Below, piece by piece: positions 3,928 to 57,886 of a stretch of DNA of 64,000 bases (positions within the stretch are counted from its first letter, which is position 1; each line of letters starts with the position of its first letter). Made by a program: the position numbers and the translations under genes. The stretch covers positions 42,972 to 106,971 of the forward strand of contig JAQVEZ010000003.1 of assembly GCA_028697455.1 (NCBI GenBank). The letters run 5' to 3'. The notes under the pieces were generated by a model. That model had not been told where the DNA came from, did not search any database, and worked only from the letters and a program-made list of their open reading frames with translations. The stretch is from Minisyncoccota bacterium. GTDB lineage: Bacteria > Patescibacteriota > Minisyncoccia > Phycocordibacterales > UBA1006.

Positions 3928-3984
3928 GATCTCATTATACGCTAAAAAATATAAATAAAAAAACACTCACAAACTGAGCATCTT

Positions 3985-11066: not shown

Positions 11067-11092
11067 CCAAAAAACACCTCTCGGTGTTTTTG
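11067..11092. terminator. bidirectional intrinsic terminator AAAAAACACCTCTCGGTGTTTTT, a member of a recurrent terminator family
   Basis: Hairpin flanked by A- and T-runs between convergent genes 10475-11044 (+) and 11109-12428 (-). Confidence 0.6.
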
Positions 11093-11108: not shown

Positions 11109-12428
11109 TTAATTCTCTTGTCCCTGCATTGCAGAAAGGAGTTGTTGATAGAGTCCCAAAAGTTCAGTATAGATATTTACCAAAGGATTGTTATTTATAA
11201 ATCCGTTTTGTGGTCTACAGAAAGTCGTTACTCCCGCTGAACAAAATCGGGTTCCGAAAATGCTTGAGGATTTTGAAGAAGTTGATGACTCTTCAGAGTT
11301 TTTAAAAATAAAGATAGATTGATTATAATAACTACCATTTGCATCCCCGAGAATGACAAACTGTCCATCTGCATAAATAATTTGGGAGGCGTTCATATAA
11401 TCACTTGTACCAAGAGTGGGGATAAGGTACTCCCACACTTCCCCTCCAAAGGAATAAGTGAGGACTTCGTTCCATTCACTGTCCTGCATATAACCAACCC
11501 CGATATAAAGACCGTCTCCATAGGTAATTGATCGTGGGGCAAAAGAAGCATCTCCTGAAACCATTTTTGCTATCCAGTCTGTCCCGTTTTTTGAAGTAAA
11601 AATTTGGTGATCACCTCCAATGATAAACTCCCCATTAAGATACTCCATTTGCCCTCTAAGATGACCTTCTAATCCCTCAATAGTATTAAACCCTGTTGTT
11701 TCATCAGGAATAAACCAATGGGCCCCTCCATCTTGAGAGAGAAGAGGTTCAAAAATAATCGGAGACATCATATCTTCCCGAGTCGAAAGAAGCGATATCA
11801 AAAGAACATCTCCATTTTGGTCATATCCTGCAGCAAGGTGCGAGGATACACCAAGAGGATTATCTTCTACCTCTCCTTTACTCCAGTGCACTCCATCATT
11901 TGAATAAATAATATAGGGTTCTTCTGTTCCTATCATCATATTTCTTTCAATCCCAACCGCCACAAATAATCCTCTGTCGTTAGAAGTATCATACACATAA
12001 GAAACCTTACTTAATTCTCCGTAAGTTTTTGTTATTTCTGGTAATGAGGTTTCAGAGGTATTTTGATCATAAGAATTCCAATTCTCCCCATCACTCGAGG
12101 TATAAACAAGAGGAAGATCATTTGAACGTTTTCCAACAGCAACAAACTTACCATCCCCATAACTAACCCATGACAGATTACCTATTATACCTGTACTTTC
12201 CCAGTTAACAGCATCAGAGGAATAAGCTATCTGACCTCCTCCAACGAGGACATACATTTCATCTCCATAAGCAATAGATGAAAAGGATGATGGCCAAGAA
12301 TCATCAGGAAAAATCAAAGATTCACTCCACTCAACAGGTTGAGCAGAAGCTGTGTGTGGATTAATAAAACTTGTAAAACCTACTATAACAAATAATGATA
12401 GTAGTGACATAAAGGTGTATTTTTTCAT
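11109..12428 (-). CDS. Secreted BNR/Asp-box repeat beta-propeller protein with a conserved two-cysteine C-terminal domain (paralog A)
   Basis: Signal peptide MKKYTFMSLLSLFVIVGF…ASA. Five or more S-x-D-G-x-x-W Asp-box motifs (YSSDAVNWES, TSSDGENWNS, YSNDGVHWSKG, LSQDGGAHWF, TSKNGTDWIAK) alternate with YGDGKFVAVG-type strands. The C-terminus SSIFGTRFCSAGVTTFCRPQNGFINNNPLVNIYTELLGLYQQLLSAMQGQEN is shared with the ORFs at 37368 and 56623. Confidence 0.7.
   Translation of the reverse strand: MKKYTFMSLLSLFVIVGFTSFINPHTASAQPVEWSESLIFPDDSWPSSFSSIAYGDEMYVLVGGGQIAYSSDAVNWESTGIIGNLSWVSYGDGKFVAVGKRSNDLPLVYTSSDGENWNSYDQNTSETSLPEITKTYGELSKVSYVYDTSNDRGLFVAVGIERNMMIGTEEPYIIYSNDGVHWSKGEVEDNPLGVSSHLAAGYDQNGDVLLISLLSTREDMMSPIIFEPLLSQDGGAHWFIPDETTGFNTIEGLEGHLRGQMEYLNGEFIIGGDHQIFTSKNGTDWIAKMVSGDASFAPRSITYGDGLYIGVGYMQDSEWNEVLTYSFGGEVWEYLIPTLGTSDYMNASQIIYADGQFVILGDANGSYYNQSIFIFKNSEESSTSSKSSSIFGTRFCSAGVTTFCRPQNGFINNNPLVNIYTELLGLYQQLLSAMQGQEN
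11122..11275. repeat. Copy 1 of a ~150-bp conserved 3'-end cassette (encodes the shared C-terminal domain) of the BNR paralogs
   Basis: CTGCATTGCAGAAAGGAGTTGTTGATAGAGTCCCAA…GTTCAGTATAGATA… is ~85-90% identical to 37386-37540 and 56637-56790, while the remainder of the genes has diverged. Confidence 0.7.
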
Positions 12429-12488
12429 ACTCTTCTAGTATACCAACCTTAGCTTTGAATGCAAAACAAAAAACACCTCTCGGTGTCT

Positions 12489-17899: not shown

Positions 17900-19079
17900 A
17901 GTCTGATTGAGAAAAAAGATCTTTTTGTTCTGAAATGTAATGAGCCAAGAGTTTCATTTCGATATCTTCTATCTCATTAAAAACATAAGGGAGAGCGTTT
18001 TCAAAAGAAATTAATTCAATTCTCCCGTTGGTAAGAAGGTGTTCTCCAAGCTCGTCATGAGAAAGGATCATTCTTTCAAACCACAAAGAAAGGGTGTCGT
18101 GTGTTTTAAGAACCAAGGTGTTAGGCAAAAGACCTTTTTTACTAAATTCATCGAGAGCATTATAAAAAGGTTTTAACCATGAGTGAAAAGCTTTTTCTGA
18201 ATCTTCCTCAAGAAGCTCTGCATAACTATCAGTAAAAGCTCTCTCGGTAAAAAGCTCAAGCGTATTTCGTGCTTCAAGCATTGAAAGTCCCATTCGAGAG
18301 GATAAATCCCTCAAAATAGTATGAACCCCAGAAGGAAAAACCCCGAAGTTACGGAGGTGATCGTTTTCAATAATAAGAATTTCAGTAAGCTCTGTTCCAA
18401 TGTCAAAAATTAAAGCATTATCGTTGTGAGGAAGGAGTGTTTTTACTCCATAATAAAAAACATAAGGATTAGAGAGAAAAATAGGGTCTCGGTGAAAATG
18501 TTTTTGAATAATCCCCTCAAAACTTTTCTTTGTTTTTCGAGACATCACAGAAACCAAAGAATGCACCTCAAATGTTCTCGCTATTGTCCCCAGAGGTTCT
18601 TTTACAGGATATCCATTAATATAATAATCCAGAACTTTTCGATCAATGAGCTCAACGTCATACTGATGATAGTTGAGATTTTTCTTTAAAGAAGTTTTGA
18701 GATCTTTTTGTTCTAGTTTTGCGAGAAGGTTTTCGTCAACAGTAAAAGCGTCTCCTTTTTTAGGTTGGTATTGGGTTATTCTTTTTTGGGAAGAAATCCA
18801 AGGGCTTCCTACGTTACAAAAAATACCCGAAATAGGAACGAGTGCGTGTAAATAAATTTCAGTAGCAAGAGCATCAAAAGTTTTTTGAGCTTTTTTCCAA
18901 AAGCGTTGATAATCGTATTGAGCTCCGTCAGAAATATCTTTTCGTAATGAGATAAACGAACGAACAAAATCAACCTCTCCTTTTTTGGTAAAGGAATACT
19001 CCAAAACGGACCCTCCAACACTTCCGCTGTCGATATCAAAAACAACAATATATTTTTTTTGAGGATTTTCCTTGTTCAT
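17883..19079 (-). CDS. FtsA/PilM-like actin-family (ASKHA) ATPase
   Basis: N-terminal YIVVFDIDSGSVGGSVLEY resembles phosphate-1, and ALIFDIGTELTEILIIENDHLRNFGVFPSGVHTI resembles the phosphate-2/adenosine motif of FtsA/PilM. The start was set at MNKEN (19079) because TGCTATACT lies 14 nt upstream; the ORF caller's start at 19127 would lie upstream of that promoter. Confidence 0.4.
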   Translation of the reverse strand: MNKENPQKKYIVVFDIDSGSVGGSVLEYSFTKKGEVDFVRSFISLRKDISDGAQYDYQRFWKKAQKTFDALATEIYLHALVPISGIFCNVGSPWISSQKRITQYQPKKGDAFTVDENLLAKLEQKDLKTSLKKNLNYHQYDVELIDRKVLDYYINGYPVKEPLGTIARTFEVHSLVSVMSRKTKKSFEGIIQKHFHRDPIFLSNPYVFYYGVKTLLPHNDNALIFDIGTELTEILIIENDHLRNFGVFPSGVHTILRDLSSRMGLSMLEARNTLELFTERAFTDSYAELLEEDSEKAFHSWLKPFYNALDEFSKKGLLPNTLVLKTHDTLSLWFERMILSHDELGEHLLTNGRIELISFENALPYVFNEIEDIEMKLLAHYISEQKDLFSQSDYDTFS

Positions 19080-19151
19080 ATCTTTGCTCTCACAGTATAG
19101 CACAAAAGAAGAAACGCTTTCAAACAAACAAAAACAAGCATTATGTGCTTG

Positions 19152-24629: not shown

Positions 24630-25865
24630 CTAAACAGGGAGATTTGCAGGAGCTTCAGATTTTGTTGCTTCGATTCTTTCAAGACTTACTGTTTCGGAAA
24701 CTCTTCCTGGAATTCTAAAGATTGTAGCAAGCTCTTCCGAGCTCAGAATAAAAGTTTTTTTCTTAGGACTCTGTTTAAACAAAAAGAATTTTTTTTCTCC
24801 CTCTCCAGAATCATAAAGTACATCATTATAGAAAAAAGCTCTATTGACATAATTATAAAAAAACTTTCTTTTTAAGGCTGGAAGTCGAGTACCCGAGATA
24901 TCTTGGTACTTATAATCAAAGGCAGTAACGAGCGTTGGTTTAAAACCATTCAAATGAGGGGAGTTATATTGACGCAAAGAAGCAGCAAGCCCTGCTATGT
25001 TAATAGGACGAAATGATTCTTTTTTTGCTAAATAAAGAGCTCGAAATCCTACTTCAAAAGCAGGCTTCTGAAAAGTTCTTTCAATTGCTTTTATTTTTTC
25101 TTGTTCACCAGAACTTAGCCGTAGAGTTGTTGCCGGCTTCTCTGGATTTGCATCTGCTCCGTCAGTAGATCTCCCAATCATTTTATAAATCTCTTCCTGC
25201 CCATCTTTCCGCCAAGTACTCCACTTGTCAGAGCGAAGGACAAGCTGTATCCAAACCTGCTCTCCTGTTCTCATTGAGCCGAGATACTCAAGCATCGCAG
25301 TAATAGGATCAACTTTTTCATACTCTTCAAGAGATCCTACGGCCCTATCAAGACCATAGTCAACATAGGTTTTGATAGGAAGAAAATCTGGACCAACAAG
25401 GCCAAACTCATATCCAAAAAGCTCCCATTCTTTTTGCTTTTTACCATAGTCTCCAATATAGCGAGCGTAGTCATCTACTTCATTAACCTCAGCCTGAGGG
25501 TATTGTGAGTAAATTTGATTTTTAAGAAGCTCTTTAAAACGCTCTTGGGTACGAATAAAAAAATAAATAGACCCTTCGATAGAAACAATCTCAAGGGAAG
25601 AGACATGGGGAACCGCCCCGCGAACATTTTTGACCCACCAGGTACCAACTCCCCCTGTGTCATTAAGTATGTTAAAAACAATCTCCATGGCTTCAGGAGA
25701 TTTAAAAACATCCTTTGGAATGTTTATTTCAAGAAGAGCCCACTTCTGATTGAGCTGGTAGATCCCCTGTCTCCATTCGATCCACATATCCCAAAAGATA
25801 AAATAAAGAACAACAGGAAGCCAAAGAAACGCTGATTGTAATATAATTGAGCCCAAAAAACTCAT
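24630..25865 (-). CDS. hypothetical membrane-anchored protein
   Basis: N-terminal TM LQSAFLWLPVVLYFIFW. 411 aa with no recognisable domain. Confidence 0.4.
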   Translation of the reverse strand: MSFLGSIILQSAFLWLPVVLYFIFWDMWIEWRQGIYQLNQKWALLEINIPKDVFKSPEAMEIVFNILNDTGGVGTWWVKNVRGAVPHVSSLEIVSIEGSIYFFIRTQERFKELLKNQIYSQYPQAEVNEVDDYARYIGDYGKKQKEWELFGYEFGLVGPDFLPIKTYVDYGLDRAVGSLEEYEKVDPITAMLEYLGSMRTGEQVWIQLVLRSDKWSTWRKDGQEEIYKMIGRSTDGADANPEKPATTLRLSSGEQEKIKAIERTFQKPAFEVGFRALYLAKKESFRPINIAGLAASLRQYNSPHLNGFKPTLVTAFDYKYQDISGTRLPALKRKFFYNYVNRAFFYNDVLYDSGEGEKKFFLFKQSPKKKTFILSSEELATIFRIPGRVSETVSLERIEATKSEAPANLPV

Positions 25866-32890: not shown

Positions 32891-32925
32891 AAATACCTGT
32901 CTCAACGAGACGGGTATTTTTATTT
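32891..32925 (+). terminator. intrinsic terminator (ATACCTGTCTC-AAC-GAGACGGGTAT followed by a T-run)
   Basis: Perfect 11-bp stem directly after the rpmA stop. Confidence 0.8.
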
Positions 32926-33508
32926 ATTTATTTTCTTGAATATTTTTTACAACGCTTTCAATAAAATTGAGAACGTCTCCAATTTCGTTATAAATAATAG
33001 AAATATTTCCTGAGCTTCGATTAAGTCCTAATCGCTCTCGACAAAAAGATGTTACCGTATCACTACAAAAACGAACTCCTGCCAATCGAGTCTGAGAAGG
33101 AAACGCAATTGCTCTCAAGGGAAATGCGTAACAATACCCGGAACAGTCTCCGTCTCCAAAAAGGTCTGGAAGTTTCTCTCCTCCTTTATTAAGGAACCAT
33201 TCGCCCGTGCTGTTCTGAGTATCACCATCGCCTCCTCCGGCTTTTGTTGCCTCACCACGTGTAGTTGTCCCATCACCAGCAGAATCTACGCCTCCTGCAT
33301 AAGCAGAGCCATCCCCCGCACCATTGGTTGCGCTATAAGGAATCCCATCACCAAGCCCCGTATAAAAATCTAGAACATGAGGAAGGCCTGATGAAGAGCT
33401 TGATGTTTGTGCAACAGCTTTGTTTATCTCGGGATTAAAAAGAGTAAAAACCAATACGAAGGCAAGCCCAAAAAGCCCTCCGATAATCATTTTGCTATTT
33501 ATTTTCAT
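32924..33508 (-). CDS. Secreted Gly/Asp-rich protein carrying the same two-cysteine C-terminal domain family as the BNR paralogs (short member)
   Basis: Signal peptide MKINSKMIIGGLFGLAFVLVF. The C-terminus …VRFCSDTVTSFCRERLGLNRSSGNISIIYNEIGDVLNFIESVVKNIQENK aligns with RFCSAGVTTFCRPQNGF…IYTELLGLYQQLLSAMQGQEN. TGGTATAAT lies 7 nt upstream of the ATG. Confidence 0.55.
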   Translation of the reverse strand: MKINSKMIIGGLFGLAFVLVFTLFNPEINKAVAQTSSSSSGLPHVLDFYTGLGDGIPYSATNGAGDGSAYAGGVDSAGDGTTTRGEATKAGGGDGDTQNSTGEWFLNKGGEKLPDLFGDGDCSGYCYAFPLRAIAFPSQTRLAGVRFCSDTVTSFCRERLGLNRSSGNISIIYNEIGDVLNFIESVVKNIQENK

Positions 33509-37137: not shown

Positions 37138-37367
37138 AGATGAAAACAGTATAACACGAAACACCCCTTCCATTCAAAAAAACCCTCCAAAGAAGGTTTT
37201 TTTGTGTAGCTTTGAATTTAAGAACATTGACATAAAGCCAAGTGGGATTCAGAAATTATAAACCAAGATTTACAACTATCAAGATTCCCGTGTTCAAAGT
37301 GTTTCAAAGTCTTTGCATTCAAAGACTACACCTTAAGTATAGCACAATCCAAAACAAAAAACAGCTC

Positions 37368-38609
37368 TTATAAGCTGTTTTCACTTTGCATTGCAGAAAG
37401 GAGTTGTTGATAGAGTCCCAAGAGTTCAGTATAGATACTGATCAGAGGATTATTGTTAGTAAATCCATTTTGAGGTCTACAGAAAGTCGTAACGGTTTCA
37501 GAGCAGAAACGAGTTCCGAAGATGCTTGAAGAGCGAGGAAACAAATTTCCATTATCCTTTTGTAATGTTCCAGTCAAGAAAACAGAGCTTGAGCCATCGT
37601 TATAAAGTGGCCCCCCTATAACAACATACTGATCATCTTCATAAAACATAAATATCGGAATAAAATCTAAAAAAGGAAATTCTTCTCGTTCCCAACTCTC
37701 TAAATTATTTGAACTAAAAAGATAATTTGTACTAGTCGCCTCTTCCACGTCAAAAATAGACCCTCCTGTTACATAGAGATTGTTGGTATATGTTACATTC
37801 TTGTGTAAACCAAGTTCTCCGTCTCCAAAAGGAGAACTATGCTCATTCCATGTGATTCCATCTGACGAGATGAATAGATGAGCAGTTTCATCTTCATCCA
37901 TTACACTGAGTATAAAGAGATTATTTGTAGAGTTAAAAGACGTCACTTCTCCTTCTGGAAAAGAAGATGTCCTATCGTCCCACTCAATTCCGTCACTTGA
38001 AGTAAGAACTAAATCATTAGATATAATAACAAACAACTCATTACCATAAAAAACAAAAGCTGCAGAGGCGGGAGCGGACGAAGGGGTTTGTTCAGTCCAT
38101 GTGATTCCGTCACTTGAAGTGTATATCTTTGGTGCTATTACCGGTGAATTTGTTGTAAGAACAAAGAGATCCTTACCATATGCAATAGAAAGAACCGATT
38201 CCTCATCAAGACCAAGGTCTTCTACTTCGTTCCATTGCTTTCCGTCAGGTGAAATGAAAACGCGAGGTGACACCGCTCCCAAGGGTCCCAAGAGTGAGTG
38301 TATACTACCACCAGCCACAAAGGTGTCATTTCCATAAGCGACAGAATTAATAACCCCAAGACCGTCGAGATCTTGCTCAGTCCATTTAATTCCATCTTCG
38401 GAAGTAAGAATAAGCGGAGTAAAGTCTGTCAAATCTTCACCCTTTACTCCTCCAACAGCAACAAAAAGGTTATCTTCATGAATAACAGAAGATACAAGAT
38501 AATTAGAAGGTGTTGGATGAATCTTCCATTCAATCTCCTGTGCGAATAATGTCCCAGCTCCTCCGAAAAGCAAAGCTGAAGCGAGTAATATATATGTATA
38601 CTTTTTCAT
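37368..38609 (-). CDS. Secreted BNR/Asp-box repeat beta-propeller protein with the conserved two-cysteine C-terminal domain (paralog B), driven by a G9-tract promoter
   Basis: Signal peptide MKKYTYILLASALLFGGAGTLFA. Asp-boxes TSEDGIKWTEQ, ISPDGKQWNEV, TSSDGITWTEQ, TSSDGIEWDDR, ISSDGITWNEH. C-terminus SSSIFGTRFCSETVTTFCRPQNGFTNNNPLISIYTELLGLYQQLLSAMQSENSL. Confidence 0.7.
   Translation of the reverse strand: MKKYTYILLASALLFGGAGTLFAQEIEWKIHPTPSNYLVSSVIHEDNLFVAVGGVKGEDLTDFTPLILTSEDGIKWTEQDLDGLGVINSVAYGNDTFVAGGSIHSLLGPLGAVSPRVFISPDGKQWNEVEDLGLDEESVLSIAYGKDLFVLTTNSPVIAPKIYTSSDGITWTEQTPSSAPASAAFVFYGNELFVIISNDLVLTSSDGIEWDDRTSSFPEGEVTSFNSTNNLFILSVMDEDETAHLFISSDGITWNEHSSPFGDGELGLHKNVTYTNNLYVTGGSIFDVEEATSTNYLFSSNNLESWEREEFPFLDFIPIFMFYEDDQYVVIGGPLYNDGSSSVFLTGTLQKDNGNLFPRSSSIFGTRFCSETVTTFCRPQNGFTNNNPLISIYTELLGLYQQLLSAMQSENSL
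37386..37540. repeat. Copy 2 of the conserved 3'-end cassette
   Basis: See 11122-11275. Confidence 0.7.
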
Positions 38610-38617
38610 ACCCCTCT

Positions 38618-38646
38618 ATTATATCTTCTGCCCCCCCCCGAGTCAA
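38618..38646 (-). promoter_or_regulatory. Sigma70-type promoter TTGACT-17 bp-TATAAT with a G9 homopolymer in the spacer (C9 on the plus strand, 38631-38639); the ATG is 8 nt downstream of the -10 box. Candidate phase-variable promoter, ON length.
   Basis: Read directly. The coding strand is AAAAAACTTGACTCGGGGGGGGGCAGAAGATATAATAGAGGGGTATG. Confidence 0.65.
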
Positions 38647-44989: not shown

Positions 44990-45532
44990 TTAATTTGAAG
45001 CCTCACAAGGTACTCGTGCATAACTCATGATAGAGAATTCTTTGCTCGTATCAGGGACAAGCTCATCCCCACTTTCAATCAGGGGATAACGGAGTTTTTC
45101 AAGCCCAGTAAGACTTGTTCGATAGATTTCAGCTTCTTTTCCCTCTGATCCTTCAATTATATATGAATAAATGGCATTAATATTCTCTCCCTGTACAGTT
45201 CCCGAGATATTTCCTTGGTATCCATTTGTCATATCAGGGCCACTCTGCGTTCCTGATTTTGTTCCTTTAACTTCGTTCCCAGTAATCGTAATATCCAGAA
45301 ACTCATTCACGGTATAAGGCTCTTCAGGACTTACCTCGTGAGCATACGAGAAACACTGTCTCCCATCAAGGAGAGCAAATTTCGCCTGCTCTTCTCCCCC
45401 TTCTTCTTGATTCTCTTGTATCACCTCATTGTTGGACAGATTCTGTTCTTTTATCTCAGAATTTCTCACAACAACAAAAGCAATCATAAAAACAAAAATC
45501 AAAAACACAAACACATAAAAAGCTTTTTTCAT
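44990..45532 (-). CDS. membrane-anchored or secreted hypothetical protein
   Basis: N-terminal hydrophobic helix AFYVFVFLIFVFMIAFVVV. It shares a ~55-bp promoter/terminator module with paralog A (TGCTATACT 8 nt upstream of the ATG). Confidence 0.45.
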   Translation of the reverse strand: MKKAFYVFVFLIFVFMIAFVVVRNSEIKEQNLSNNEVIQENQEEGGEEQAKFALLDGRQCFSYAHEVSPEEPYTVNEFLDITITGNEVKGTKSGTQSGPDMTNGYQGNISGTVQGENINAIYSYIIEGSEGKEAEIYRTSLTGLEKLRYPLIESGDELVPDTSKEFSIMSYARVPCEASN

Positions 45533-45600
45533 ACCCTTTTAGTATAGCAACCTTAGCTTTAAATTAAAAACCAAAAAACACCTCCCAGTGTCTTTCCTAG

Positions 45601-47957: not shown

Positions 47958-49502
47958 ATGAGCGGTTTACATTTTGATATTGAAAACAATTCAAAAAATT
48001 ACCTAGATGAAAAGGAGCTTTTTATGCTTTTCTATTTATTAAAGAATAAGCGTATATCTACATATAGCGGTGTGTTTGTACCTAACCCTAAGCAAGTACT
48101 TATCAAGCCAGATACTACCCCTGAGGATTTATGGGAAAGAATGAATTACAGAGGGCAATCTGTAGTTGTTTTAAATCACTTGTTAAATCTGGGAAAAAAT
48201 TTAGATGAGAAAGGTTTTTCAATATATTGCAACGCTGACTATTCTCTAGTAGAAGGTGGATTTTTAACTGATGATTTTCATAAAGAAATGTACGATTATT
48301 TGAATCTTTCTGAATCTGAACGCAGAAAAGATACTATACTGAATAAAGAACAGAAAGACTTTCTTGAAGAGGTAATTGCAGGAAAACTAGACTTAAAAGA
48401 TATTAATACAAGTGTGCAGTTTACTAAGTTAGCAAACCCTCCCGTTGAATGTTATAGAGAATGTATTTTAAATAAAAAAGCTGATGAAAGATTTATTGAG
48501 TTAATAAATAAGCTTGTTACTAATTATGACGGCGGATTATGGAAAACAGAAGATATAGAAGAATTTTTAAATATCTGGTATCAATCAAATAAAAAACTGG
48601 TAGTAGACAGCGAGCAAGGAATTTTTTATGAAGATAATCAAAAAAAGCTATCTCGTTTAATTTTTGAAAATGTTGAGATTCAATTGGTTTTAAAAGATAC
48701 TCAAAAACTAGAAGAATATTTAAATGACTATCTCAATCTCTATAAAAATGACAAATTAAAAGGATTAAGCAGAACAGGGCTTACTAGAAGTTTCTTTTCT
48801 TCGGGTTATGCGGAAGATATAAATAAAAGCTTTTATGGATACAAAAGACAAAGAGATATTTTAATAAAGCATATTGAAGCTGTTTATAACGAATACCAAA
48901 GAAAAGACTTAGAAATTACAAATCCATACATAGAACCTGAGTATATTGGCGATGAAAAAATCGGTACGGTAAAAATAAAACCAGTTGAAGAAAACAAAGA
49001 AAGAGATTCTTTTCTCTTCGTACATACAATGATAACTCTTGAAAAAGAAATGTATTTAAATATTAATGATTATTCATATGGTACTAAGGAGATGTTTGAT
49101 TTATACGACAGAGGTTTTTTGTTTGAAGTTACTTTAAATTCAATGCCTATTGAAGAAGAAAATAGTAAAGAACCTACAGTACAAAATGATACGGTTTATT
49201 TTGATACTGAGGTTTCAAAGATTTTATGTAATGGGAATGAAATAAAAATAACAAAAGGTAAAGATATTTATTATGCAATTAAGTATCTATTTGAAAGAAA
49301 GGATACTTATGAAGAATGTTTTTATGATGAAATTAGAGATGATTCTGAGTTAAATGACGGCAAAAAAAGGACTGACAAAAATATTTATGATGCCTTAATG
49401 CAATTCAACAAAAGACTTATAAATAAAGGAATTGATGACCTTTTTGTGATTAATTTTCGCTCAATAAAGATAAGAAATAAATACAAGATAGTTACACTAT
49501 AA
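47958..49502 (+). CDS. hypothetical protein, 514 aa, island cargo with no recognisable domain
   Basis: Long ORF at ~30% GC, followed by the terminator hairpin AATCC-TTCG-GGATT plus T-run at 49541-49562. Confidence 0.5.
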   Translation: MSGLHFDIENNSKNYLDEKELFMLFYLLKNKRISTYSGVFVPNPKQVLIKPDTTPEDLWERMNYRGQSVVVLNHLLNLGKNLDEKGFSIYCNADYSLVEGGFLTDDFHKEMYDYLNLSESERRKDTILNKEQKDFLEEVIAGKLDLKDINTSVQFTKLANPPVECYRECILNKKADERFIELINKLVTNYDGGLWKTEDIEEFLNIWYQSNKKLVVDSEQGIFYEDNQKKLSRLIFENVEIQLVLKDTQKLEEYLNDYLNLYKNDKLKGLSRTGLTRSFFSSGYAEDINKSFYGYKRQRDILIKHIEAVYNEYQRKDLEITNPYIEPEYIGDEKIGTVKIKPVEENKERDSFLFVHTMITLEKEMYLNINDYSYGTKEMFDLYDRGFLFEVTLNSMPIEEENSKEPTVQNDTVYFDTEVSKILCNGNEIKITKGKDIYYAIKYLFERKDTYEECFYDEIRDDSELNDGKKRTDKNIYDALMQFNKRLINKGIDDLFVINFRSIKIRNKYKIVTL

Positions 49503-49566
49503 AACACTATAAGTAAAACAAAATAAAGCATTTTATATCCTGAAGTTAATCCTTCGGGATTTTATT

Positions 49567-49731
49567 TATGCAGGAAAATATCAAACAAGAAAATAATCTA
49601 GAAAACCTTGATTTTGAATCAAAGCAAAATCTTGTTGGTTTTTTTGATTTGCTCTTGAAAATTGATATGCGAATCAATCCTGATTTATACAAAGAAGATT
49701 ATCAACCTAAAAAAGAACAAGAAATATGATA
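49567..49731 (+). CDS. small acidic protein (54 aa) translationally coupled (ATGA overlap) to the Rep-like gene
   Basis: Manual translation gives MQENIKQENNLENLDFESKQNLVGFFDLLLKIDMRINPDLYKEDYQPKKEQEI. The stop overlaps the start of the 49726 gene. Confidence 0.3.
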
Positions 49732-50829
49732 GATACAATTATTATCAACATTACTAGAAGCAAGGTAAGAATGCTTTCAGGAGAACGCTGGGATTTAATT
49801 GCGAAAAAGGACTTTTATTCCAAGTTTGCAAGGAACCCCACCAAAAGACAAAAAGAAAGTGATAGATACTACCCTCGTTTGACAGGAGTACAAAGAGCAG
49901 GAAGTGAATCAATCGTAAAGATAGAGTTTTCAATTCCCAAGCTTCTATACTTAAACAATCTTGATGAGCTAGAAGAGAAAGATTTTAAAGAAGTAATTAA
50001 AACACTTCACGAAAGACTGAAAGATATGAGCGTCTTAATATTTGAAAAAGACCTTATCAACGCAGATGTATCTGCAGTTCATTATTCAAAAAACATAGTG
50101 CTAACAAGTGGATATACAGCAAAACATATTATTTCAGAATTGCAGAAAATAAATCTTAATAAACTGAATGATTTAACAAAGACAAGGTTTATGAATAGTG
50201 GAGAAAGTTTACAAGGATATTCAATTTCTAACTCATTTGTCTTTTATGACAAAATATCTGACTTACAAAAAGATGAAAAACGAGCGATAGACAGAGAACA
50301 GAATCCGTATCAAAGGAGTTTATTTAGCTCTTTAAAAGATGAAGAAATACTACGCTTTGAAGTAAGACTTTCACAAAAGAGAAAGTTGAATACTCTATTC
50401 AAGCAATATGGATTCAAAACGAACCCTACATTTCAAGAAGCTTTTTCACTAGATAAAGCTTTAAAAGTGATGACTGAGTATTGGAATGAAAAAATAGATA
50501 AAAACAAATATGTTTTATTTACTTATTCTGAAAACACAGAATCATTACTAAAAAAGATTAGTATTGCACGACCAAAATCACGACCGCAAACATTACTATC
50601 ACTTCTAGGATTAGTATCTTTTGCAAAAGATAATAAAGGCGGATTAAGAGAATTAAGGACAATACTTACTGCACGAATTACTGATAGAGCTTGGTATTCA
50701 ATAGTTAAAAATTTGAAGACTATTTCAAAAGATTTGGAATCATTAAGCGAGCTAGATTGGTATCAGGAAGTTTCAAAACAGATTAAAAATTATAAGCCAT
50801 ACAAGACAAAAAAGTTATCAAAAGCATAG
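49726..50829 (+). CDS. Rep_trans-like rolling-circle replication initiator (pT181 RepC / Tn916-Orf20-like)
   Basis: ESLQGYSISNSFVFYDKISDLQKDEK resembles the RepC block …[22 protein letters not shown], and EILRFEVRLSQKRKL resembles HLWRVEIELKRD. Confidence 0.45.
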   Translation: MIDTIIINITRSKVRMLSGERWDLIAKKDFYSKFARNPTKRQKESDRYYPRLTGVQRAGSESIVKIEFSIPKLLYLNNLDELEEKDFKEVIKTLHERLKDMSVLIFEKDLINADVSAVHYSKNIVLTSGYTAKHIISELQKINLNKLNDLTKTRFMNSGESLQGYSISNSFVFYDKISDLQKDEKRAIDREQNPYQRSLFSSLKDEEILRFEVRLSQKRKLNTLFKQYGFKTNPTFQEAFSLDKALKVMTEYWNEKIDKNKYVLFTYSENTESLLKKISIARPKSRPQTLLSLLGLVSFAKDNKGGLRELRTILTARITDRAWYSIVKNLKTISKDLESLSELDWYQEVSKQIKNYKPYKTKKLSKA

Positions 50830-50870
50830 ATTTGCAATGTAAACTATTGTCAAGTATAATATAAACAATT

Positions 50871-51692
50871 ATGACTAAAGAAATTAAAAATAAACAAGAC
50901 ATTACCCTCTTTGAACAACAAGAAGTCAGAAAAGTATGGCACAAAGAAAAGTGGCATTTTGCAATTATTGATGTTGTAAAAATTCTTACTGATTCTGTAC
51001 AACCTGAAGGGTATATCAAGGATATGAGAAGGCGTGATAAGGAGCTTTCTGAAGGGTGGGGGCAAATTGCCACCCTCCTTTCCATAGATACAAAAGGAGG
51101 TAAACAAAAGATGAATTGTGCTGACTTGGAAGGTATTTTCCGTATTATTCAATCAATTCCCTCTCCAAAAGCAGAACCATTTAAACGCTGGCTCGCAAAA
51201 GTTGGTAAAGAGCGAATTGATGAAATAGCGAATCCTGAATTGGCAGTGAACAGAGCAAAAGAAATTTACGAAAAGAAAGGATATGAAAAAGACTGGATTG
51301 ATAAACGAATGCGAGGTATTGCTGTTAGAAATACTTTAACAGACGAATGGAAAGAAAGAGATATAAAAGGTATTGAATACGGAATCCTGACAAACGAAAT
51401 TTACAAAGGTACTTTTGAACAAGACCATAAATCTTTAATGAAGATAAAAGGTTTGGATAAAAAGAAAGGAGACAATTTACGAGACCATATGGGAGATGTT
51501 GAGCTTATTTTAACAATGCTCGCTGAAGCGACTTCAACAGAAATTACAAAGAGCAAAGACTCAAAAGGAATGAATGAGATAAAGCAGGATGTAAAGAAAG
51601 GAGGACAAATTGCTGGTAATACACGAAAGAAGATTGAAGCTGAGACTGGTAAAAAAGTTATTACTAAAAGTAACCGCAAAGAATTGAAATAA
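50871..51692 (+). CDS. DinD-like / Bro-N domain protein (DNA-damage-inducible protein D family)
   Basis: Bro-N-like N-terminus EVRKVWHKEKWHFAIIDVVKILTD, and a C-terminal block KGLDKKKGDNLRDHMGDVELILTMLAEATSTEITKSKD that matches E. coli DinD KGLKKNQKILDHMGSTELAANLFRATQTEEKLKRD. Confidence 0.6.
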   Translation: MTKEIKNKQDITLFEQQEVRKVWHKEKWHFAIIDVVKILTDSVQPEGYIKDMRRRDKELSEGWGQIATLLSIDTKGGKQKMNCADLEGIFRIIQSIPSPKAEPFKRWLAKVGKERIDEIANPELAVNRAKEIYEKKGYEKDWIDKRMRGIAVRNTLTDEWKERDIKGIEYGILTNEIYKGTFEQDHKSLMKIKGLDKKKGDNLRDHMGDVELILTMLAEATSTEITKSKDSKGMNEIKQDVKKGGQIAGNTRKKIEAETGKKVITKSNRKELK

Positions 51693-51693
51693 T

Positions 51694-51879
51694 ATGAGCA
51701 ACAAACAAGAGAAAGAATTTTACAAATCGGAAGATTTAGCTGAAAAGCTAGATGTAAACATAATGACGATTTATCGTTATATCAAAGCTGGCAGATTGAA
51801 AGCACATAAGATTGGTAAGGAATTTAGAATTGAACAAAAAGAATTTTTGAATTTTCTTAAAAATACAAAAACCAAATAA
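51694..51879 (+). CDS. Excisionase-family HTH (HTH_17 / MerR-like) DNA-binding protein
   Basis: …VNIMTIYRYIKAGRLKAHKIGKEFRI… is the typical Xis/HTH_17 signature; 61 aa. Confidence 0.65.
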   Translation: MSNKQEKEFYKSEDLAEKLDVNIMTIYRYIKAGRLKAHKIGKEFRIEQKEFLNFLKNTKTK

Positions 51880-51884
51880 TCAAT

Positions 51885-52691
51885 ATGAGTAAGACAAAAA
51901 AAACTAAAATAAAGACTAACGTTGTATACAATGAAAGTTGTTTGGAAACTATGGCAAAAATGCCAGATAATTTTGTAGACTTAACTGTCACCTCTCCTCC
52001 TTATGATAATTTGCGGGATTATGGTGGAAACCCTTTTCCTTTTAAGGAGTTTATGTTAATTGCAAAAGAATTACACCGAGTAACTAAAGACGGTGGTATT
52101 GTTGTTTGGGTTGTTGGAGACCAAACCATAAAAGGAAATGAGACGGGAACATCTTTTAAACAAGCACTCTACTTCAAAGAAGTTGGTTTTAAATTGTTCG
52201 ATACAATGATTTACCAAAAGACTCCCAGGGGTGCAGTTGGTAATAATAAAACATATTGGCAAACTTTTGAGTATATGTTTGTTCTTAGTAAAGGAACCCC
52301 GAAAAGTATTAACTTAATTAAGGACAGAGAAAACAAAAGTGCTAGGGATGGAGATAATGGAACCAAGAGACTTAAGGATGGTACTCTGATTAAACAAAAA
52401 AGGAAGGGTTATTCACAATACGGCAGAAGAACTAACGTCTGGGAATATCTAATAGGCAGAGGACATTCTGCAAGTGATAATATTGCGTATGAACATCCAG
52501 CCATATTTCCAGAGAAACTAGCAGAAGACCATATTATTTCCTGGAGCAATAAAGGAGATATCGTTTATGACCCATTTATGGGAAGTGGAACAACAGCAAA
52601 GATGGCAATCATAAATAAAAGAAAATATATTGGAAGTGAGTTATTTAGTGAATATATAGAAATTATAAATAAAAGAATTAAAAATATATGA
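51885..52691 (+). CDS. DNA methyltransferase, N4-cytosine/N6-adenine family (pfam01555-like, beta-class order IV…I)
   Basis: Motif IV TVTSPPYDN near the N-terminus, …HPAIFPEKLAEDHI…, and motif I IVYDPFMGSGTTAKMA near the C-terminus. Confidence 0.8.
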   Translation: MSKTKKTKIKTNVVYNESCLETMAKMPDNFVDLTVTSPPYDNLRDYGGNPFPFKEFMLIAKELHRVTKDGGIVVWVVGDQTIKGNETGTSFKQALYFKEVGFKLFDTMIYQKTPRGAVGNNKTYWQTFEYMFVLSKGTPKSINLIKDRENKSARDGDNGTKRLKDGTLIKQKRKGYSQYGRRTNVWEYLIGRGHSASDNIAYEHPAIFPEKLAEDHIISWSNKGDIVYDPFMGSGTTAKMAIINKRKYIGSELFSEYIEIINKRIKNI

Positions 52692-53146
52692 TTTGTACAG
52701 AGTGTAATAAAAATGAAGCATTAAAGGGTGAATTTTGCGAATCTTGTTTTAATGAAACTAAAATATGCCGTAGGTGTCAAAAGCAGAAAAGTATTTTTGA
52801 ATTTGAAAAAAATCAAAAGAGTATAGCTGGAAAAGTTTCTAGGCGGGGTGAATGTAAAGAATGCAGAAGTTGGAAAAAACCAATAAACCAGAAAGCTCGT
52901 ACTGAATATGAAAAAAATAATCCGCCTACCCCGATAGGAGAATCGTTTACTTGTCCTGTCTGTAAGAAAACTTTTATTCGCCAATTCAAAAATGATGTTG
53001 TATTAGAGCACGACCACAAGACTGGTGAAATAAGGGGGTGGCTTTGCAGAATGTGTAACAATGGTATGGGTATGATGGAAGATGATATTGGAATTTTGGA
53101 ACGAGCAATTAAATGGCTAAAAGGTACATTATCCATATTTCTATAA
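52688..53146 (+). CDS. Endonuclease VII-family HNH (His-Me finger) nuclease, Cys-rich
   Basis: DHDHKTGEIRGWLCRMCNNGMG is the EndoVII/HNH core. There are multiple CxxC pairs, and the start overlaps the MTase stop (ATGA). Confidence 0.65.
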   Translation: MICTECNKNEALKGEFCESCFNETKICRRCQKQKSIFEFEKNQKSIAGKVSRRGECKECRSWKKPINQKARTEYEKNNPPTPIGESFTCPVCKKTFIRQFKNDVVLEHDHKTGEIRGWLCRMCNNGMGMMEDDIGILERAIKWLKGTLSIFL

Positions 53147-53150
53147 AAAT

Positions 53151-54650
53151 ATGAAAGCAATAATCTTAGCTAGAGTATCAACAGAAGAACAAAAAGAAGC
53201 TGGAAACTCATTGCCAGCTCAGATAACTCGCATAGAAAGATATTGTGAGCAACAGAAATTTGAGGTTATTGATACCTTTTCTTTTGACGAATCTGCATAT
53301 AAAACAAAAAGAGATGAGTTTGATAAAATACTAGATTTTCTAAAAACTAATAAAGAAAAAGTAGCAGTTTGTTTTGATAAGGTTGATAGACTTTCTCGTA
53401 ATGTTTTTGATAAAAGAGTTTCAGTGCTTTATGAAAAAGCTGTAAATGACGAGATTGAATTACACTTTGTATCAGACGGACAAGTTATTAATTCAAATAT
53501 GTCTGCTGTTGCGAAGTTTCAATTTGGAATGAGTCTAGGACTAGCGAAGTATTACTCAGACGCAATTTCAGACAATGTTAAAAGAGCTTTTGAAAAGATG
53601 AGAGCTGAAGGTAAATGGACTGGAAGAGTGAGAATCGGATACAAGAATACTACAGATGAAAATGGAAATAGAGATATTGCTTTAGATGAAGAGCGGGCTG
53701 ATTTGGTACATAGAATTTTTGAAATGTATGCGACAGGCAATCACTCTATTGCGAGTATCCTAAAAGAGATGAATAAACTTGGATTAAAAAGCTTAAATGG
53801 AAATAAGCTTTCTAAGAGTAATATTGACTTAATCTTGAATGATACTTTTTATTATGGAATGGCGTATTCCAAGAAATATAATTATTACTATCCGCACAAA
53901 TATGAAAAGCTTGTATCAAAGGAATTATTTTTTAAGTGTAAAGAAGTACGACTAGATAGAGCGAGAAAACCCTCAAAGGTTGATTCAAATAACTTTATAT
54001 TTAAAGGGCTTTTGACCTGCCAAAAATGTGGATGTTCTGTTACTCCTGAGATAAAGACTAAGAAGAGCGGAAAGCAATATATTTACTATTCTTGTACTAA
54101 TTCTAAGGGTATTTGCCAAAGAGAATATATACCTGAAAAGACCCTCCTAGAGCCGATTCTAGCCGTTCTAGAGCGATTTGAGAGCATTACACAGGATACA
54201 CAGGACTATCTTCTAAAAGAGCTTAGAAAGAATAATGAAGCTGAGGTTGAATTTCATAAAAAACAGCTAAAACGAATCAATACAGAATATCAAACAATAC
54301 AATCTAAAATTAGCAGACTTACAGACCTTCTTTTAGACAATAGTATTACTAAGGAATCATATGAAGAAAAACTGCAAGAGCTTAAACACAAACAGCTAAA
54401 GCTTGGAGTAGAAATTGATTTATATACAAAAGCAGATAAAGACTATTTATTGACTGTATCTAAAGTACTTTCTCTCGCTACAAGAGTAAAAACAATATTT
54501 GAAAGTTCTGAAATACACGAAAAACGAGCATTGTTAAATTATTTAATTCAGAACCCTACTCTAAACGGAAAAAAGCTATATTTTTCAATAGCTTCTCCAT
54601 ATAATTTGGTACTAGATTTAGCTAGTAAACCTACTTGGCTCCCCGGGTAG
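53151..54650 (+). CDS. Large serine recombinase (integrase)
   Basis: Catalytic AIILARVSTEEQ…DRLSRN resolvase domain, a recombinase domain, a zinc ribbon CQKCGCSV…YYSCTNSKGICQ, and a coiled-coil. The last 15 nt overlap tRNA-Asn on the opposite strand. Confidence 0.88.
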   Translation: MKAIILARVSTEEQKEAGNSLPAQITRIERYCEQQKFEVIDTFSFDESAYKTKRDEFDKILDFLKTNKEKVAVCFDKVDRLSRNVFDKRVSVLYEKAVNDEIELHFVSDGQVINSNMSAVAKFQFGMSLGLAKYYSDAISDNVKRAFEKMRAEGKWTGRVRIGYKNTTDENGNRDIALDEERADLVHRIFEMYATGNHSIASILKEMNKLGLKSLNGNKLSKSNIDLILNDTFYYGMAYSKKYNYYYPHKYEKLVSKELFFKCKEVRLDRARKPSKVDSNNFIFKGLLTCQKCGCSVTPEIKTKKSGKQYIYYSCTNSKGICQREYIPEKTLLEPILAVLERFESITQDTQDYLLKELRKNNEAEVEFHKKQLKRINTEYQTIQSKISRLTDLLLDNSITKESYEEKLQELKHKQLKLGVEIDLYTKADKDYLLTVSKVLSLATRVKTIFESSEIHEKRALLNYLIQNPTLNGKKLYFSIASPYNLVLDLASKPTWLPG

Positions 54651-54710
54651 GATTCGAACCTACGGCCAATCGGTTAACAGCCGATTGCTCTACCGCTGAG
54701 CTACCGGGGA
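54636..54710 (-). tRNA. tRNA-Asn (anticodon GTT), CCA encoded
   Basis: Manual fold gives a 7-bp acceptor TCCCCGG/CCGGGGA, a D-arm GCTC-AGCGGTA-GAGC, an anticodon stem ATCGG/CCGAT with loop CTGTTAA, and a T-arm GTAGG-TTCGAAT-CCTAC. An upstream promoter TTGCAT-17 bp-TATATT sits 8 nt before +1. Confidence 0.85.
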
Positions 54711-55812: not shown

Positions 55813-56592
55813 TCAAAGTTGATGCTCAGCAATCTGAGTTCTTTTTATTCTCAACGACAGTGCCCCACATCCATAATGTTCTCCAATAGAGTGTACCAAA
55901 GAACGAATGTAGGTTCCCGAAGATACCCCAAATCGTGCTGTAAAGACAGTATAACGGTTATCAGGCCTCTCGTCCAAATATCTTTCCCAGTGTGATTTAA
56001 TTTCTTCTTGTCGAAAATCTCCTTCAATAAAGTCAATGACCGAAAGATATTCTGAGATAAGTTCCCCACGCTTAAGCTCTCTGTGAGAAACAAGCTCAGC
56101 AGAAAAAACTTCACGTGATTCTTTGGGAAAAATAATGCCATCAAGCTGATCTTCACGTGCATATTGCCAGAGAGACTTTCCTTTGATTGTTTTTGATGAG
56201 TATGGTGGATATTCCTGCTCCTGAACCCCTGCAAGAGATCCAACAAAAGAGCTCAAGTCTTTTTTATGAGGAAAGGGTTTTGGGTCTTTTGTCTCTTTGA
56301 GGATTCCAAGAGCATCATAAGTATCAGAAGAAACCCCAAAGAGAAAATCAACTTCATAGGTTTTGGAAAGTTTGTTATAGCGGTCCTTGTGGTGGACATC
56401 TTCATCTGTAAGGAGGATCATCAACCCTTCGGCAAGAGGATCGAGTCGTCCTGCGTAGGTAATCTTTGCATCTTGAAATTCAGGATGGGTAGATCGGAAT
56501 CTCTCAAGGGTTATCAAAAGAGTTTCTCCGTATTTTTTATTCCAATGAATCACTGCCATCGTGCCCATTATACTCATAAAACCAAAAAACAC
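55813..56592 (-). CDS. truB: tRNA pseudouridine(55) synthase TruB-like
   Basis: YAGRLDPLAEGLMILL (GTLDPxAxGxL catalytic-Asp motif) and KTYEVDFLFGVSSDTYDALG (KxYxV…G.xTDTxDxxG). Confidence 0.7.
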   Translation of the reverse strand: MFFGFMSIMGTMAVIHWNKKYGETLLITLERFRSTHPEFQDAKITYAGRLDPLAEGLMILLTDEDVHHKDRYNKLSKTYEVDFLFGVSSDTYDALGILKETKDPKPFPHKKDLSSFVGSLAGVQEQEYPPYSSKTIKGKSLWQYAREDQLDGIIFPKESREVFSAELVSHRELKRGELISEYLSVIDFIEGDFRQEEIKSHWERYLDERPDNRYTVFTARFGVSSGTYIRSLVHSIGEHYGCGALSLRIKRTQIAEHQL

Positions 56593-56622
56593 CTCTCGGT
56601 GTTTTGTGTTCTCTATATAGAT

Positions 56623-57846
56623 TTAGTTCTCTTGCCCCTGCATTGCAGAAAGGAGTTGTTGGTAGAGTCCCAAGAGTTCAGTGTAGATACTGATCAATGG
56701 GTTGTTATTTACAAATCCGTTTTGAGGTCTACAGAAGGTAGTAACTCCGGCAGTACAGAATCGAGTTCCGAAGATGTTTGAGGATGAACCTTTTTGCGGA
56801 GGAAATTCTCCAAGAAGGATTCTGTTATTGTCATCAGATTCAAAAGCTACTGCAACAAATTTATTATCAGCATAAGCAACAGAAATATACCCGTGTTGTG
56901 GGTCGGTATCAACGGTCTCCCAGTTAATCCCATCCTTAGATATAGCAACAGCCTTTCCTGGTTCACTCAAATTATTATCGTAGTCATACGATACCATCAC
57001 AAAGTATCCATTTCCAAAAGCAATATCTTCCCACATTGCCTTGGTGTCAGGAGAAGAATAAGCTGTCCAATTCTTACCATCGCTTGATACAATAATATCT
57101 TGAGCAGCTCCATCATCTTCTGAGATGGCTACGAATTTACCATTTCCATAGGCAACACTGGTCCAAGATCCACCTCCAGCCACTGGTGCTGTAAAGTATT
57201 GCCAGGTTTGTCCTTTGTCTTCGGATACAGCGATGTGTTTTCCATCAGTTGCTGCTTGATTTTTAGACCCAACAACAACGATTTTTCCATCTCCATAAGC
57301 AATACCAGACCAATATTTAGATGCCTCTTCTCCTTTCGCCACCCAGTTTAATCCATCAGTTGAAATGTATATTTGTTTATAAGCACCTTTCCCGCTATAG
57401 CTTCGTGAATAATCAACTGCAACAAAAACATCATCAACAAAAGCGAGGTCTCCTATTTGAATTCCAGAAAAACTCCCCAAAGGAACGCCAGGAACTCCTG
57501 TCCAAGTTTCTCCCCCATCAGTTGATCGATAAAAAACATTACCAGACCAAGCATTTCCAAGAACAAAAGCTCCGTTTCCGTAAGCAATTCCAGTAAACCA
57601 TTGGCTCCCTCCCCAAGTAAATGGGGCTAGTTCCCAATTTTTACCATCTTCTGAGATCATAATACGATTTGTCCCATTTGAAGAAACTGCAACAAATTTC
57701 CCTTCACCATAGGTTACAGCACGCCAAGCATTTTGTGCAGGAGCTTCGATACTTGTCCATTCAATTTCATTTGCATAAGCATCTGTCCCTAAGAATGCAA
57801 GACTTAAAAAAAATATTGATAATAATATAAAATTAATTTTCTTCAT
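56623..57846 (-). CDS. Secreted BNR/Asp-box repeat beta-propeller protein with the conserved two-cysteine C-terminal domain (paralog C), driven by a G10-tract promoter
   Basis: Signal peptide MKKINFILLSIFFLSLAFLGTDAYA. Asp-boxes ISEDGKNWEL, RSTDGGETWTGV, ISTDGLNWVAKG, VSEDKGQTWQYF, VSSDGKNWTAY, ISKDGINWETV. C-terminus SSNIFGTRFCTAGVTTFCRPQNGFVNNNPLISIYTELLGLYQQLLSAMQGQEN. Confidence 0.7.
   Translation of the reverse strand: MKKINFILLSIFFLSLAFLGTDAYANEIEWTSIEAPAQNAWRAVTYGEGKFVAVSSNGTNRIMISEDGKNWELAPFTWGGSQWFTGIAYGNGAFVLGNAWSGNVFYRSTDGGETWTGVPGVPLGSFSGIQIGDLAFVDDVFVAVDYSRSYSGKGAYKQIYISTDGLNWVAKGEEASKYWSGIAYGDGKIVVVGSKNQAATDGKHIAVSEDKGQTWQYFTAPVAGGGSWTSVAYGNGKFVAISEDDGAAQDIIVSSDGKNWTAYSSPDTKAMWEDIAFGNGYFVMVSYDYDNNLSEPGKAVAISKDGINWETVDTDPQHGYISVAYADNKFVAVAFESDDNNRILLGEFPPQKGSSSNIFGTRFCTAGVTTFCRPQNGFVNNNPLISIYTELLGLYQQLLSAMQGQEN
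56637..56790. repeat. Copy 3 of the conserved 3'-end cassette
   Basis: See 11122-11275. Confidence 0.7.
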
Positions 57847-57855
57847 ATATTTTTT

Positions 57856-57886
57856 ATTGTATCATTCTGCCCCCCCCCCGAGTCAA
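57856..57886 (-). promoter_or_regulatory. Duplicated sigma70-type promoter TTGACT-19 bp-TACAAT with a G10 homopolymer in the spacer (C10 on the plus strand, 57870-57879). Candidate phase-variable promoter, apparently at a suboptimal (OFF) spacer length.
   Basis: Read directly. The coding strand is AAAACTTGACTCGGGGGGGGGGCAGAATGATACAATAAAAAATATATG, and the 27-bp core CTGCCCCCCCCC(C)GAGTCAAGTTTTTT is shared with 38628-38652. Confidence 0.6.

Follow-up and report, generated by a model that had tools for sequence, protein, structure and literature searches.

The 64,000-nt stretch of Minisyncoccota DNA analysed here (contig JAQVEZ010000003.1; referred to as the window) carries a minus-strand gene for a secreted beta-propeller protein, g2, whose last 150 or so nucleotides (nt) recur at the 3' ends of other genes. 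This block is the coding sequence of a conserved C-terminal module, a Cys-x7-Cys loop followed by an amphipathic helix. We propose that the genes ending in this module (the tail) form a family of recombining, probably phase-variable surface-protein genes, in which the tail is both a protein domain and a recombination arm; we put the probability of this reading at about 70%. The coordinates of the tail-bearing genes (g1 to g4) and of their associated elements are collected in Table 1.

The flagged stretches are the 3' ends of three minus-strand open reading frames (ORFs), g1, g2 and g3. They could be aligned without meaningful gaps (three-way mean column identity 89%), and pairwise DNA identity of the tail block was 80-86% over 146-159 nt (BLASTN E = 1e-40 to 1e-41; codon alignment). 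The original prediction had described a cassette that was 85-90% identical; the similarity is indeed strong, and the figure is slightly high for pairwise comparisons. Outside the tail, the three genes share 27-30% amino-acid identity and 44-46% nucleotide identity.

The tail is a new, previously undescribed C-terminal domain of about 53 amino acids (aa), with the consensus SSSIFGTRFCxxxVTTFCRPQNGFxNNNPLxxIYTELLGLYQQLLSAMQ... Its core motif, FGTRFC-x7-FCR, is followed by a polar, Gln-rich amphipathic helix in which the tail ends. It had no match in Pfam, NCBIfam, PHROGs or PDB, no known sorting or anchor domain was recognised in it (T9SS CTD, LPXTG, PEP-CTERM, GlyGly-CTERM), and it contains no hydrophobic transmembrane stretch. 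A hidden Markov model (HMM) of the tail, run against 1.84 billion representative proteins, gave 19 matches (12 at E <= 1e-10); 11 of these 12 strong matches were read, and in all 11 the tail stood at the very C-terminus. A word-index protein search with the 55-aa tail gave one match only, and scans of GTDB species genomes, JGI metagenomes and IMG/VR did not find it. There was no syntenic relative at any of 80 gyrB loci of other Patescibacteria (best GyrB matches up to 77-79% identity, nearly all from Patescibacteria/Paceibacteria metagenome-assembled genomes, MAGs), and consequently the family is confined to a narrow lineage.

Three paralogs had been reported at first, a number that was not borne out: at least 11 tail bearers are present in this MAG (g1-g4, P0001, P0004, P0005, P0006, P0137, P0139 and P0243). 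The proteins of g1-g4 were identical to those of the NCBI MAG 'Candidatus Pacebacteria bacterium' (locus tags PHC89_), an uncultured member of the Paceibacteria. P0001, P0004, P0005 and P0006 were considered as members of a second genome; this was ruled out, since all four come from the MAG that contains the window. Truncation in assembly may explain P0001 (78 aa), P0006 (183 aa) and the fragment P0227. The four tail-bearing genes of the window lie among housekeeping genes and have conserved signal peptides and tails. Since the tail is found behind propellers that differ in sequence and also behind unrelated bodies (P0005, P0012, P0017 and g4), it is an independent module.

Synonymous and non-synonymous divergence (dS and dN, Nei-Gojobori) were compared between tails and bodies of the window paralogs. 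In the tail, dN was 0.04-0.11 and dS 0.76-1.08 (on 46 codons, with wide errors), while in the body dN was 0.72-0.90 and dS was saturated (1.4-1.9). As tail dN/dS was about 0.05-0.08, tail conservation is mainly the result of purifying selection on the protein. The tail dS also indicates that the three window copies were not recently homogenised, and that their overall identity is, on its own, no signature of conversion. The tails represent old variants that have been shuffled, not a repeat that has been homogenised; within a genome, homogenisation is suggested for the last ~50 nt only. A dS as high in the cassette as in the rest of the genes had been named as the outcome that would speak for amino-acid conservation only; the tail value was the lower of the two. 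Codon identity agreed with this. Identical residues used the identical codon at 28/43, 32/47 and 29/43 tail positions, compared to 19-21 expected from window codon usage (P = 0.0006-0.002), and the identical-codon counts of the bodies equalled the expectation, so that the greater synonymous similarity of the cassette was confirmed. The excess was concentrated in the last 17 codons (IYTELLGLYQQLLSAMQ), where the rare codons TTG and CTC are common to all three genes; over the tail as a whole, the rare codons common to the three copies are TTC, TTG and CTC.

The main evidence for recombination came from related strains. These were available as short-read Logan contigs (L081 to L092), assigned to strains on the basis of sequence identity and sample identifiers. 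L085 carries the gene that corresponds to g2 by synteny (gyrB, gene, RNase J). The two loci were 95.1% identical at the gyrB 3' end, 95.6% in the last 180 nt of the body, 96.5% over the tail end and terminator and 93.6% in RNase J, but only 76.9% over tail nt 1-117 (27 differences; at the flank rate, binomial P = 1e-9). Most of the substitutions in the core of the tail were synonymous (dS 1.99 in the tail vs. 0.58 in the body), and the L085 tail core was ~92% identical, as read off the alignment, to the tail of L081, a gene of a closely related strain that is at a different locus. L083 and L091, orthologs of P0005, were 94% identical overall, with 82% identity over tail nt 1-90 and 100% from nt 91 into yebC. 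L081 and L082 share the order PBP, gene, yebC, ruvB, with flanks 94-98% identical, while their gene bodies had 54% DNA identity. Homology extended over the first ~100 nt of the coding sequence, to a point just past the signal peptide, and was regained in the tail (84% over nt 1-90, 100% from nt 91 to the end). In genes at the same position with flanks at that level (94-98%), tail cores were thus only 77-84% identical. Between paralogs, tail dS was lower than body dS; between same-position genes, it was higher. The g2 body itself is mosaic: compared to L085 703-1053 (window about 37.9-38.4 kb), ~350 nt were 47-70% identical within regions of 85-100%, which suggests exchange of propeller blades as well.

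Gene order at the yebC locus also differed between strains. This MAG has P0243 (MDD3694044) and P0005 (MDD3694045) in tandem, followed by yebC. The tandem arrangement was confirmed by L083, L091 and L092, which all open with the last part of a preceding tail ('...SAMQGQNS*' and terminator), ~300 nt upstream of the P0005-type gene. L081 and L082 have a single gene at this locus, with a P0243-like body and a P0005-like tail, and their homology to L083/L091 begins at the first tail codons. An unequal crossover between two tails in direct repeat, or an insertion in the opposite direction, would be expected to leave just such a tandem pair and single gene. L081 has its true counterpart in P0243, which lies on another contig of this genome; the comparison of g3 with L081 is consequently one between paralog lineages, and orthology of the two genes was ruled out. 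The tail-joined hybrid gene beside the tandem pair, together with the exact body replacement between L081 and L082, supports the earlier proposal that the 3' cassettes are a substrate for shuffling.

Tails were mosaic at a finer scale. In the pairwise homoplasy index (PHI) test, 8 tails (138 nt, 36 informative sites, 351/630 site pairs incompatible) gave P = 0.0002-0.011; with synonymous sites only, P was about 0.01 using 3 or 5 neighbouring sites and 0.087 using 2. The stretch LLGLYQQ is spelled GGA CTC TAY CAA in g1, g2 and g3 and GGG TTG TAT CAG in L081, L082 and L085, and this synonymous spelling tracks the genome and not the locus. Tails at the RNase J locus end in either '...SAMQSENS*' or '...SAMQGQNS*' in strains that are identical further downstream. 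Five contigs from different samples (L083, L086, L088, L091 and L092) start in the tail 3' block (first 15-50 nt), the expected behaviour of an assembly graph that meets an exact repeat. The comparison with related genomes that had been called for thus showed decoupled histories of tail and body, mosaic tails with a significant PHI test, and bodies swapped between signal peptide and tail.

Purifying selection on the domain plus codon bias, without any part of the block in recombination, would be an alternative explanation. It agrees with the low dN/dS and high dS of the tail, with the mostly synonymous differences among the window copies, and with g4, P0012, P0014 and P0017, in which the domain is kept at the protein level without DNA similarity. 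However, it does not explain why codon identity exceeds the codon-usage expectation in tails (P about 0.001) and not in bodies, nor the significant PHI test and the structural breakpoints at the tail; and tail cores diverged mostly at synonymous sites beside far more similar flanks are not producible by selection alone. We consider this explanation unlikely. The claim of gene conversion beyond purifying selection therefore holds as far as recombination is concerned, but purifying selection is the main cause of the conservation and the three copies were not recently converted.

In the recombination reading that we prefer, the module is kept mainly by purifying selection on the protein. Every paralog has this module, with perfect runs of 26-35 nt in its last ~50 nt (the 3' block, as measured among g1-g3; a 35-nt run in g2 is identical to g1), so the tail is also usable as a 3' homology arm. 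It would serve in this way in RecA-type homologous recombination among paralogs and strains, with the conserved promoter and signal-peptide block as the 5' homology arm; the 5' boundary of the L081/L082 body swap falls in that block. Three outcomes are visible in the related genomes: short conversion patches within the tail, exchange of the entire body from arm to arm, and gain or removal of a gene by unequal crossover of tandem copies. The ends of the patches were spread over tail nt ~1-118 at differing places, which argues for homologous and not site-specific recombination. Within the 3' block, from about tail nt 90-118 onward, identity was again as high as in the flanks; the longest perfect matches are found here, and the 3' block of g2 is the putative crossover zone. 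Promoter modules were swapped too, since L085 has a g1-type promoter where g2 has a poly-G promoter. At least some donors must be non-allelic, given the tail mismatch between g2 and L085 and the P0243/P0005 hybrid gene. RecA dependence, surface exposure, the function of the tail and on/off switching are parts of this scheme that we infer.

A site-specific shufflon or invertible cassette did not fit the data, as breakpoints were spread and the palindrome within the cassette was not conserved; the sole recombinase found in the window lies in an integrated element at tRNA-Asn. The palindrome reported earlier, CTGCATTGCAG, is present in g1 and g3 only. Its counterpart in g2 is TTGCATTGCAG, an imperfect version, and it is missing from the tails of L081-L083. 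It corresponds to the Ser-Ala-Met-Gln codons read on the opposite strand and is an incidental by-product of these; as a functional site it was ruled out by its absence from g2 and relatives.

The last ~50 nt might also be held by an overlapping nucleotide element, for example an mRNA structure, a site bound by a small RNA or a protein, or the palindrome if it were the target of a recombinase. The 3' block hardly varies between g1, g2 and g3, the last codons of the '...ENS(L)*' ends form the 5' arm of a terminator hairpin, and a large serine recombinase gene (53151-54650) lies about 2 kb from g3. But related strains spell the block otherwise (e.g. GGG TTG TAT CAG, CTT CTC TTT GCT CTT), and with several such synonymous changes its nucleotide sequence is not itself conserved. 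RNAalifold on 9 tails detected no covariation beyond the terminator (covariation term +1.57), and there were no Rfam matches. A recombinase site would predict a single breakpoint position and not the spread observed over the tail; the palindrome, besides its patchy occurrence, has a 5-bp stem with a 1-nt loop that cannot fold, and the serine recombinase belongs to the element next to tRNA-Asn. This alternative is very improbable.

Diversity-generating retroelements (DGRs) are common in bacteria of the candidate phyla radiation (CPR) and target ~100-150 bp at the 3' ends of genes. If the blocks were DGR variable or template repeats, their 3' position in surface-protein genes, ~150 bp size, 80-90% identity and run of AAY Asn codons would all fit. 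The substitutions, however, were not adenine-specific (C/T 28, A/T 14, A/G 11, A/C 7, C/G 3, G/T 2) and mostly synonymous, the Asn run was kept in 3/3 copies, and all copies in the window were in-frame gene ends, with no non-coding template copy. No reverse transcriptase was found by Pfam among the 44 scanned window ORFs of >= 150 aa, about eight shorter or overlapping ORFs of that size being outside the scan. We rejected a DGR within the window on these grounds (no reverse transcriptase among the scanned ORFs, no adenine bias, synonymous changes), and hold it to be the least credible of the explanations.

Several observations weigh against recombining surface-protein genes with a tail that doubles as a recombination arm. 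L083, which encodes the same protein as the P0005 of this MAG, has an intermediate 3' block, and L084 did not group with L081 despite a common sample series. An exact repeat of ~35 nt can yield assembly chimeras in short-read contigs, and what looks like a hybrid gene at the yebC locus might in principle be a tandem pair that the assembly collapsed; countering the latter, the two samples that show the hybrid are independent and have the identical join, and where strains carry the tandem pair, the contigs were broken at this point. Intragenomic conversion and inter-strain exchange are indistinguishable with these data. The three window copies differ by a tail dS of ~0.8-1.1, so that exchange between them, if any, is old, and homogenisation within the genome rests on few copies (DNA of 3, plus g4, of at least 11 paralogs). 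Finally, the tail was modelled with pLDDT < 50, which makes its function a guess.

Table 1. Tail-bearing genes, tail segments, promoters and terminators (window numbering; promoters of related contigs without window position).
Feature	Position	Strand	Basis
g1, 439 aa, PHC89_02125	11109..12428	-	ORF and translation
g1 tail	11109-11270	-	BLASTN, exact runs
g1 tail 3' block	11109-11174	-	BLASTN, exact runs
Terminator downstream of g1, AAAACACCGAGAGGTGTTTTTTGG	11067..11090	-	sequence
g2, secreted beta-propeller protein, 413 aa, PHC89_02285	37368..38609	-	ORF, translation; identical to database protein P0002
g2 tail cassette, encodes SSSIFGTRFCSETVTTFCRPQNGFTNNNPLISIYTELLGLYQQLLSAMQSENSL and stop (feature flagged at 37386-37540)	37368..37532	-	tblastn, BLASTN, alignment, dN/dS
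g2 tail 3' high-identity block, IYTELLGLYQQLLSAMQ... to stop	37368..37436	-	longest exact runs, strain comparison, contig starts
g2 intrinsic terminator hairpin, AACAGCT-TATAAG-AGCTGTTTTTT	37355..37380	-	sequence
g2 promoter, TTGACT, 17-nt spacer with G9 (38631-38639), TATAAT	38618..38646	-	sequence
g3, 407 aa, NCBI name 'sialidase family protein'	56623..57846	-	ORF, translation
g3 tail	56623-56784	-	BLASTN, exact runs
g3 tail 3' block	56623-56688	-	BLASTN, exact runs
g3 promoter, TTGACT, 19-nt spacer with G10 (57870-57879), TACAAT	57856..57886	-	sequence
g4, 194 aa, Gly-rich, secreted, no propeller	32924..33508	-	tblastn E = 7e-4, translation, in HMM alignment
L082 promoter, G11, 20-nt spacer			counted from sequence
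L084 promoter, at least G10, at contig end			
L081 promoter, poly-G tract interrupted			

The proteins of g1-g3 have a common layout, with an N-terminal signal-peptide-like sequence, a repeat body and the shared tail. Their bodies contain repeated SxDGxxW and YGxGxFVAV motifs and gave weak Pfam/NCBIfam matches to the BNR, Kelch and DUF6242 propeller families, all Pfam matches being below the gathering score except DUF6242 in g2 (30.3 vs. a cut-off of 29). For g3, > 2000 homologs with DUF6242_C (PF25852) or EPTP (PF03736) type domains were found. AlphaFold2 predicted a confident beta-propeller for g2 and a C-terminal helix at residues 388-411; the low-confidence region comprises the linker and the Cys-x7-Cys stretch, so that the tail has no usable model. 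The family is one of predicted Sec-secreted, highly variable proteins, for the most part beta-propellers of BNR/Asp-box type, and these may be surface-exposed. The tail may anchor, sort or oligomerise the variable ectodomain, which is a guess. The g4 tail is strongly diverged (GVRFCSDTVTSFCR...IIYNEI...) and has no nucleotide-level similarity to g1-g3. The g4 protein is Gly/Asp-rich and, together with P0009 (>= 90% identity), is kept in at least 12 contigs from several samples; in these contigs the g4-type gene always lies between infC/rpmI/rplT and rpmA/uvrB.

The promoters had been described as phase-variable. The poly-G tracts are real and their lengths differ among homologous promoters (Table 1); those of g2 and g3 are the only two runs of >= 8 G in the window. 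Slippage of the tract within the promoter spacer would probably switch the expression of some members, and such switching is plausible from the sequence of the promoters. The g2 terminator overlaps the stop codon, its 5' arm being the last codons of the gene, and hairpins of this type were kept in L081-L085 and L091. The sequence of the g1 terminator was also found after g3 (56582-56605, minus strand). A near-identical intrinsic terminator, AA[A/G]ACACCGAGAGGTGTTTTTTG, is found at four places on the minus strand (11067-11090, 12466-12489, 45571-45594 and 56582-56605). Two of these copies, at 12416-12489 and 45524-45594, are joined to a promoter module that they have in common (TTCAAAGCTAAGGTTGGTATACT...ATG), and this module also precedes the L085 gene, in place of the g2-type poly-G promoter.

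In Helicobacter pylori, the babA/babB/babC genes (Hop family) are scattered paralogs that diverge in the middle and are nearly identical at the 5' and 3' ends; alleles or chimeras are transferred between the loci by RecA-dependent gene conversion, besides switching by simple-sequence repeats. The family described here is similar in having paralogs at scattered loci, conserved ends, a divergent middle, inter-locus exchange and a simple-sequence repeat. It differs in the organism (a CPR bacterium with a Gram-positive-like envelope vs. a Gram-negative pathogen), in the variable part, which here is a propeller ectodomain, in the 3' part (~53-aa Cys loop and helix vs. an outer-membrane beta-barrel), in the repeat (poly-G in the promoter spacer vs. 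a CT dinucleotide repeat in the coding region) and in the similarity of the ends (tails 80-90% identical vs. nearly identical ends). Neisseria opa genes encode multi-locus surface proteins with a conserved frame and variable regions, and become mosaic by inter-locus recombination; opa proteins are beta-barrels, and CTCTT repeats within the coding sequence are responsible for their phase variation. Transcription of porA and opc is tuned by a homopolymeric G/C tract located in the -35/-10 spacer. The present family resembles opa as a multi-locus family of mosaic genes, and porA/opc in its poly-G spacer tract; by contrast, it has neither the CTCTT coding repeats nor the beta-barrels of opa, and it is known from sequence only. 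The diversity of the opa gene family is among the matters treated in PMC13183285. BNR/Asp-box propellers (DUF6242_C, EPTP) are related to the bodies of g1-g3 by weak matches and by the modelled fold, and propeller homologs elsewhere have other anchors (T9SS CTD, OmpA, FN3, prepilin N-terminus) and none has this tail. By analogy, the family would be a known kind of system, of the bab/opa type, in a new lineage and with a new tail domain.

The neighbouring genes of the window are housekeeping genes (gyrB, RNase J, rpoA, uvrA, uvrB, rnc, truB, dnaK, dnaJ, grpE and tRNA synthetases). A probable integrated mobile element occupies 47958-54710 on the plus strand. It contains two ORFs without a family match, a BRO-N domain protein, an N6/N4 DNA methylase and the large serine recombinase mentioned above, the end of which overlaps tRNA-Asn (54636-54710, minus strand). 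A 933-aa ORF at 1165-3966 (minus strand) gave weak matches to VirD4/TraG/TrwB-type coupling ATPases; a possible role in the transfer or uptake of DNA would be relevant to the arrival of foreign alleles. ORFs of 434, 414 and 411 aa at 16595-19127 and 24630-25865 (minus strand) had no Pfam family at E <= 1e-4, and the 411-aa ORF corresponds to the L086 gene marked DUF8128 (weak).

CPR/Patescibacteria are thought to be attached to other cells, and surface variation in them is known mainly through DGRs. A literature search on phase variation or gene conversion in Patescibacteria/CPR found nothing relevant among the papers covered. It is an even bet that this is the first contingency-locus system described in Patescibacteria/CPR, comprising at least 11 beta-propeller genes with recombination-shuffled ectodomains and poly-G switching. 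Such families are probably under-reported, because the tail breaks short-read assemblies and members may be lost from MAGs or truncated in them. The family takes a visible share of a very small genome, and ectodomain swapping, patches of conversion in the tail and hypermutable tracts in promoters point to strong, fluctuating selection on surface recognition. Its members are concrete candidates for host-attachment or phage-receptor proteins. If the proposal is true, an ultra-small and probably host-attached cell would vary its surface against hosts or phages without a DGR.

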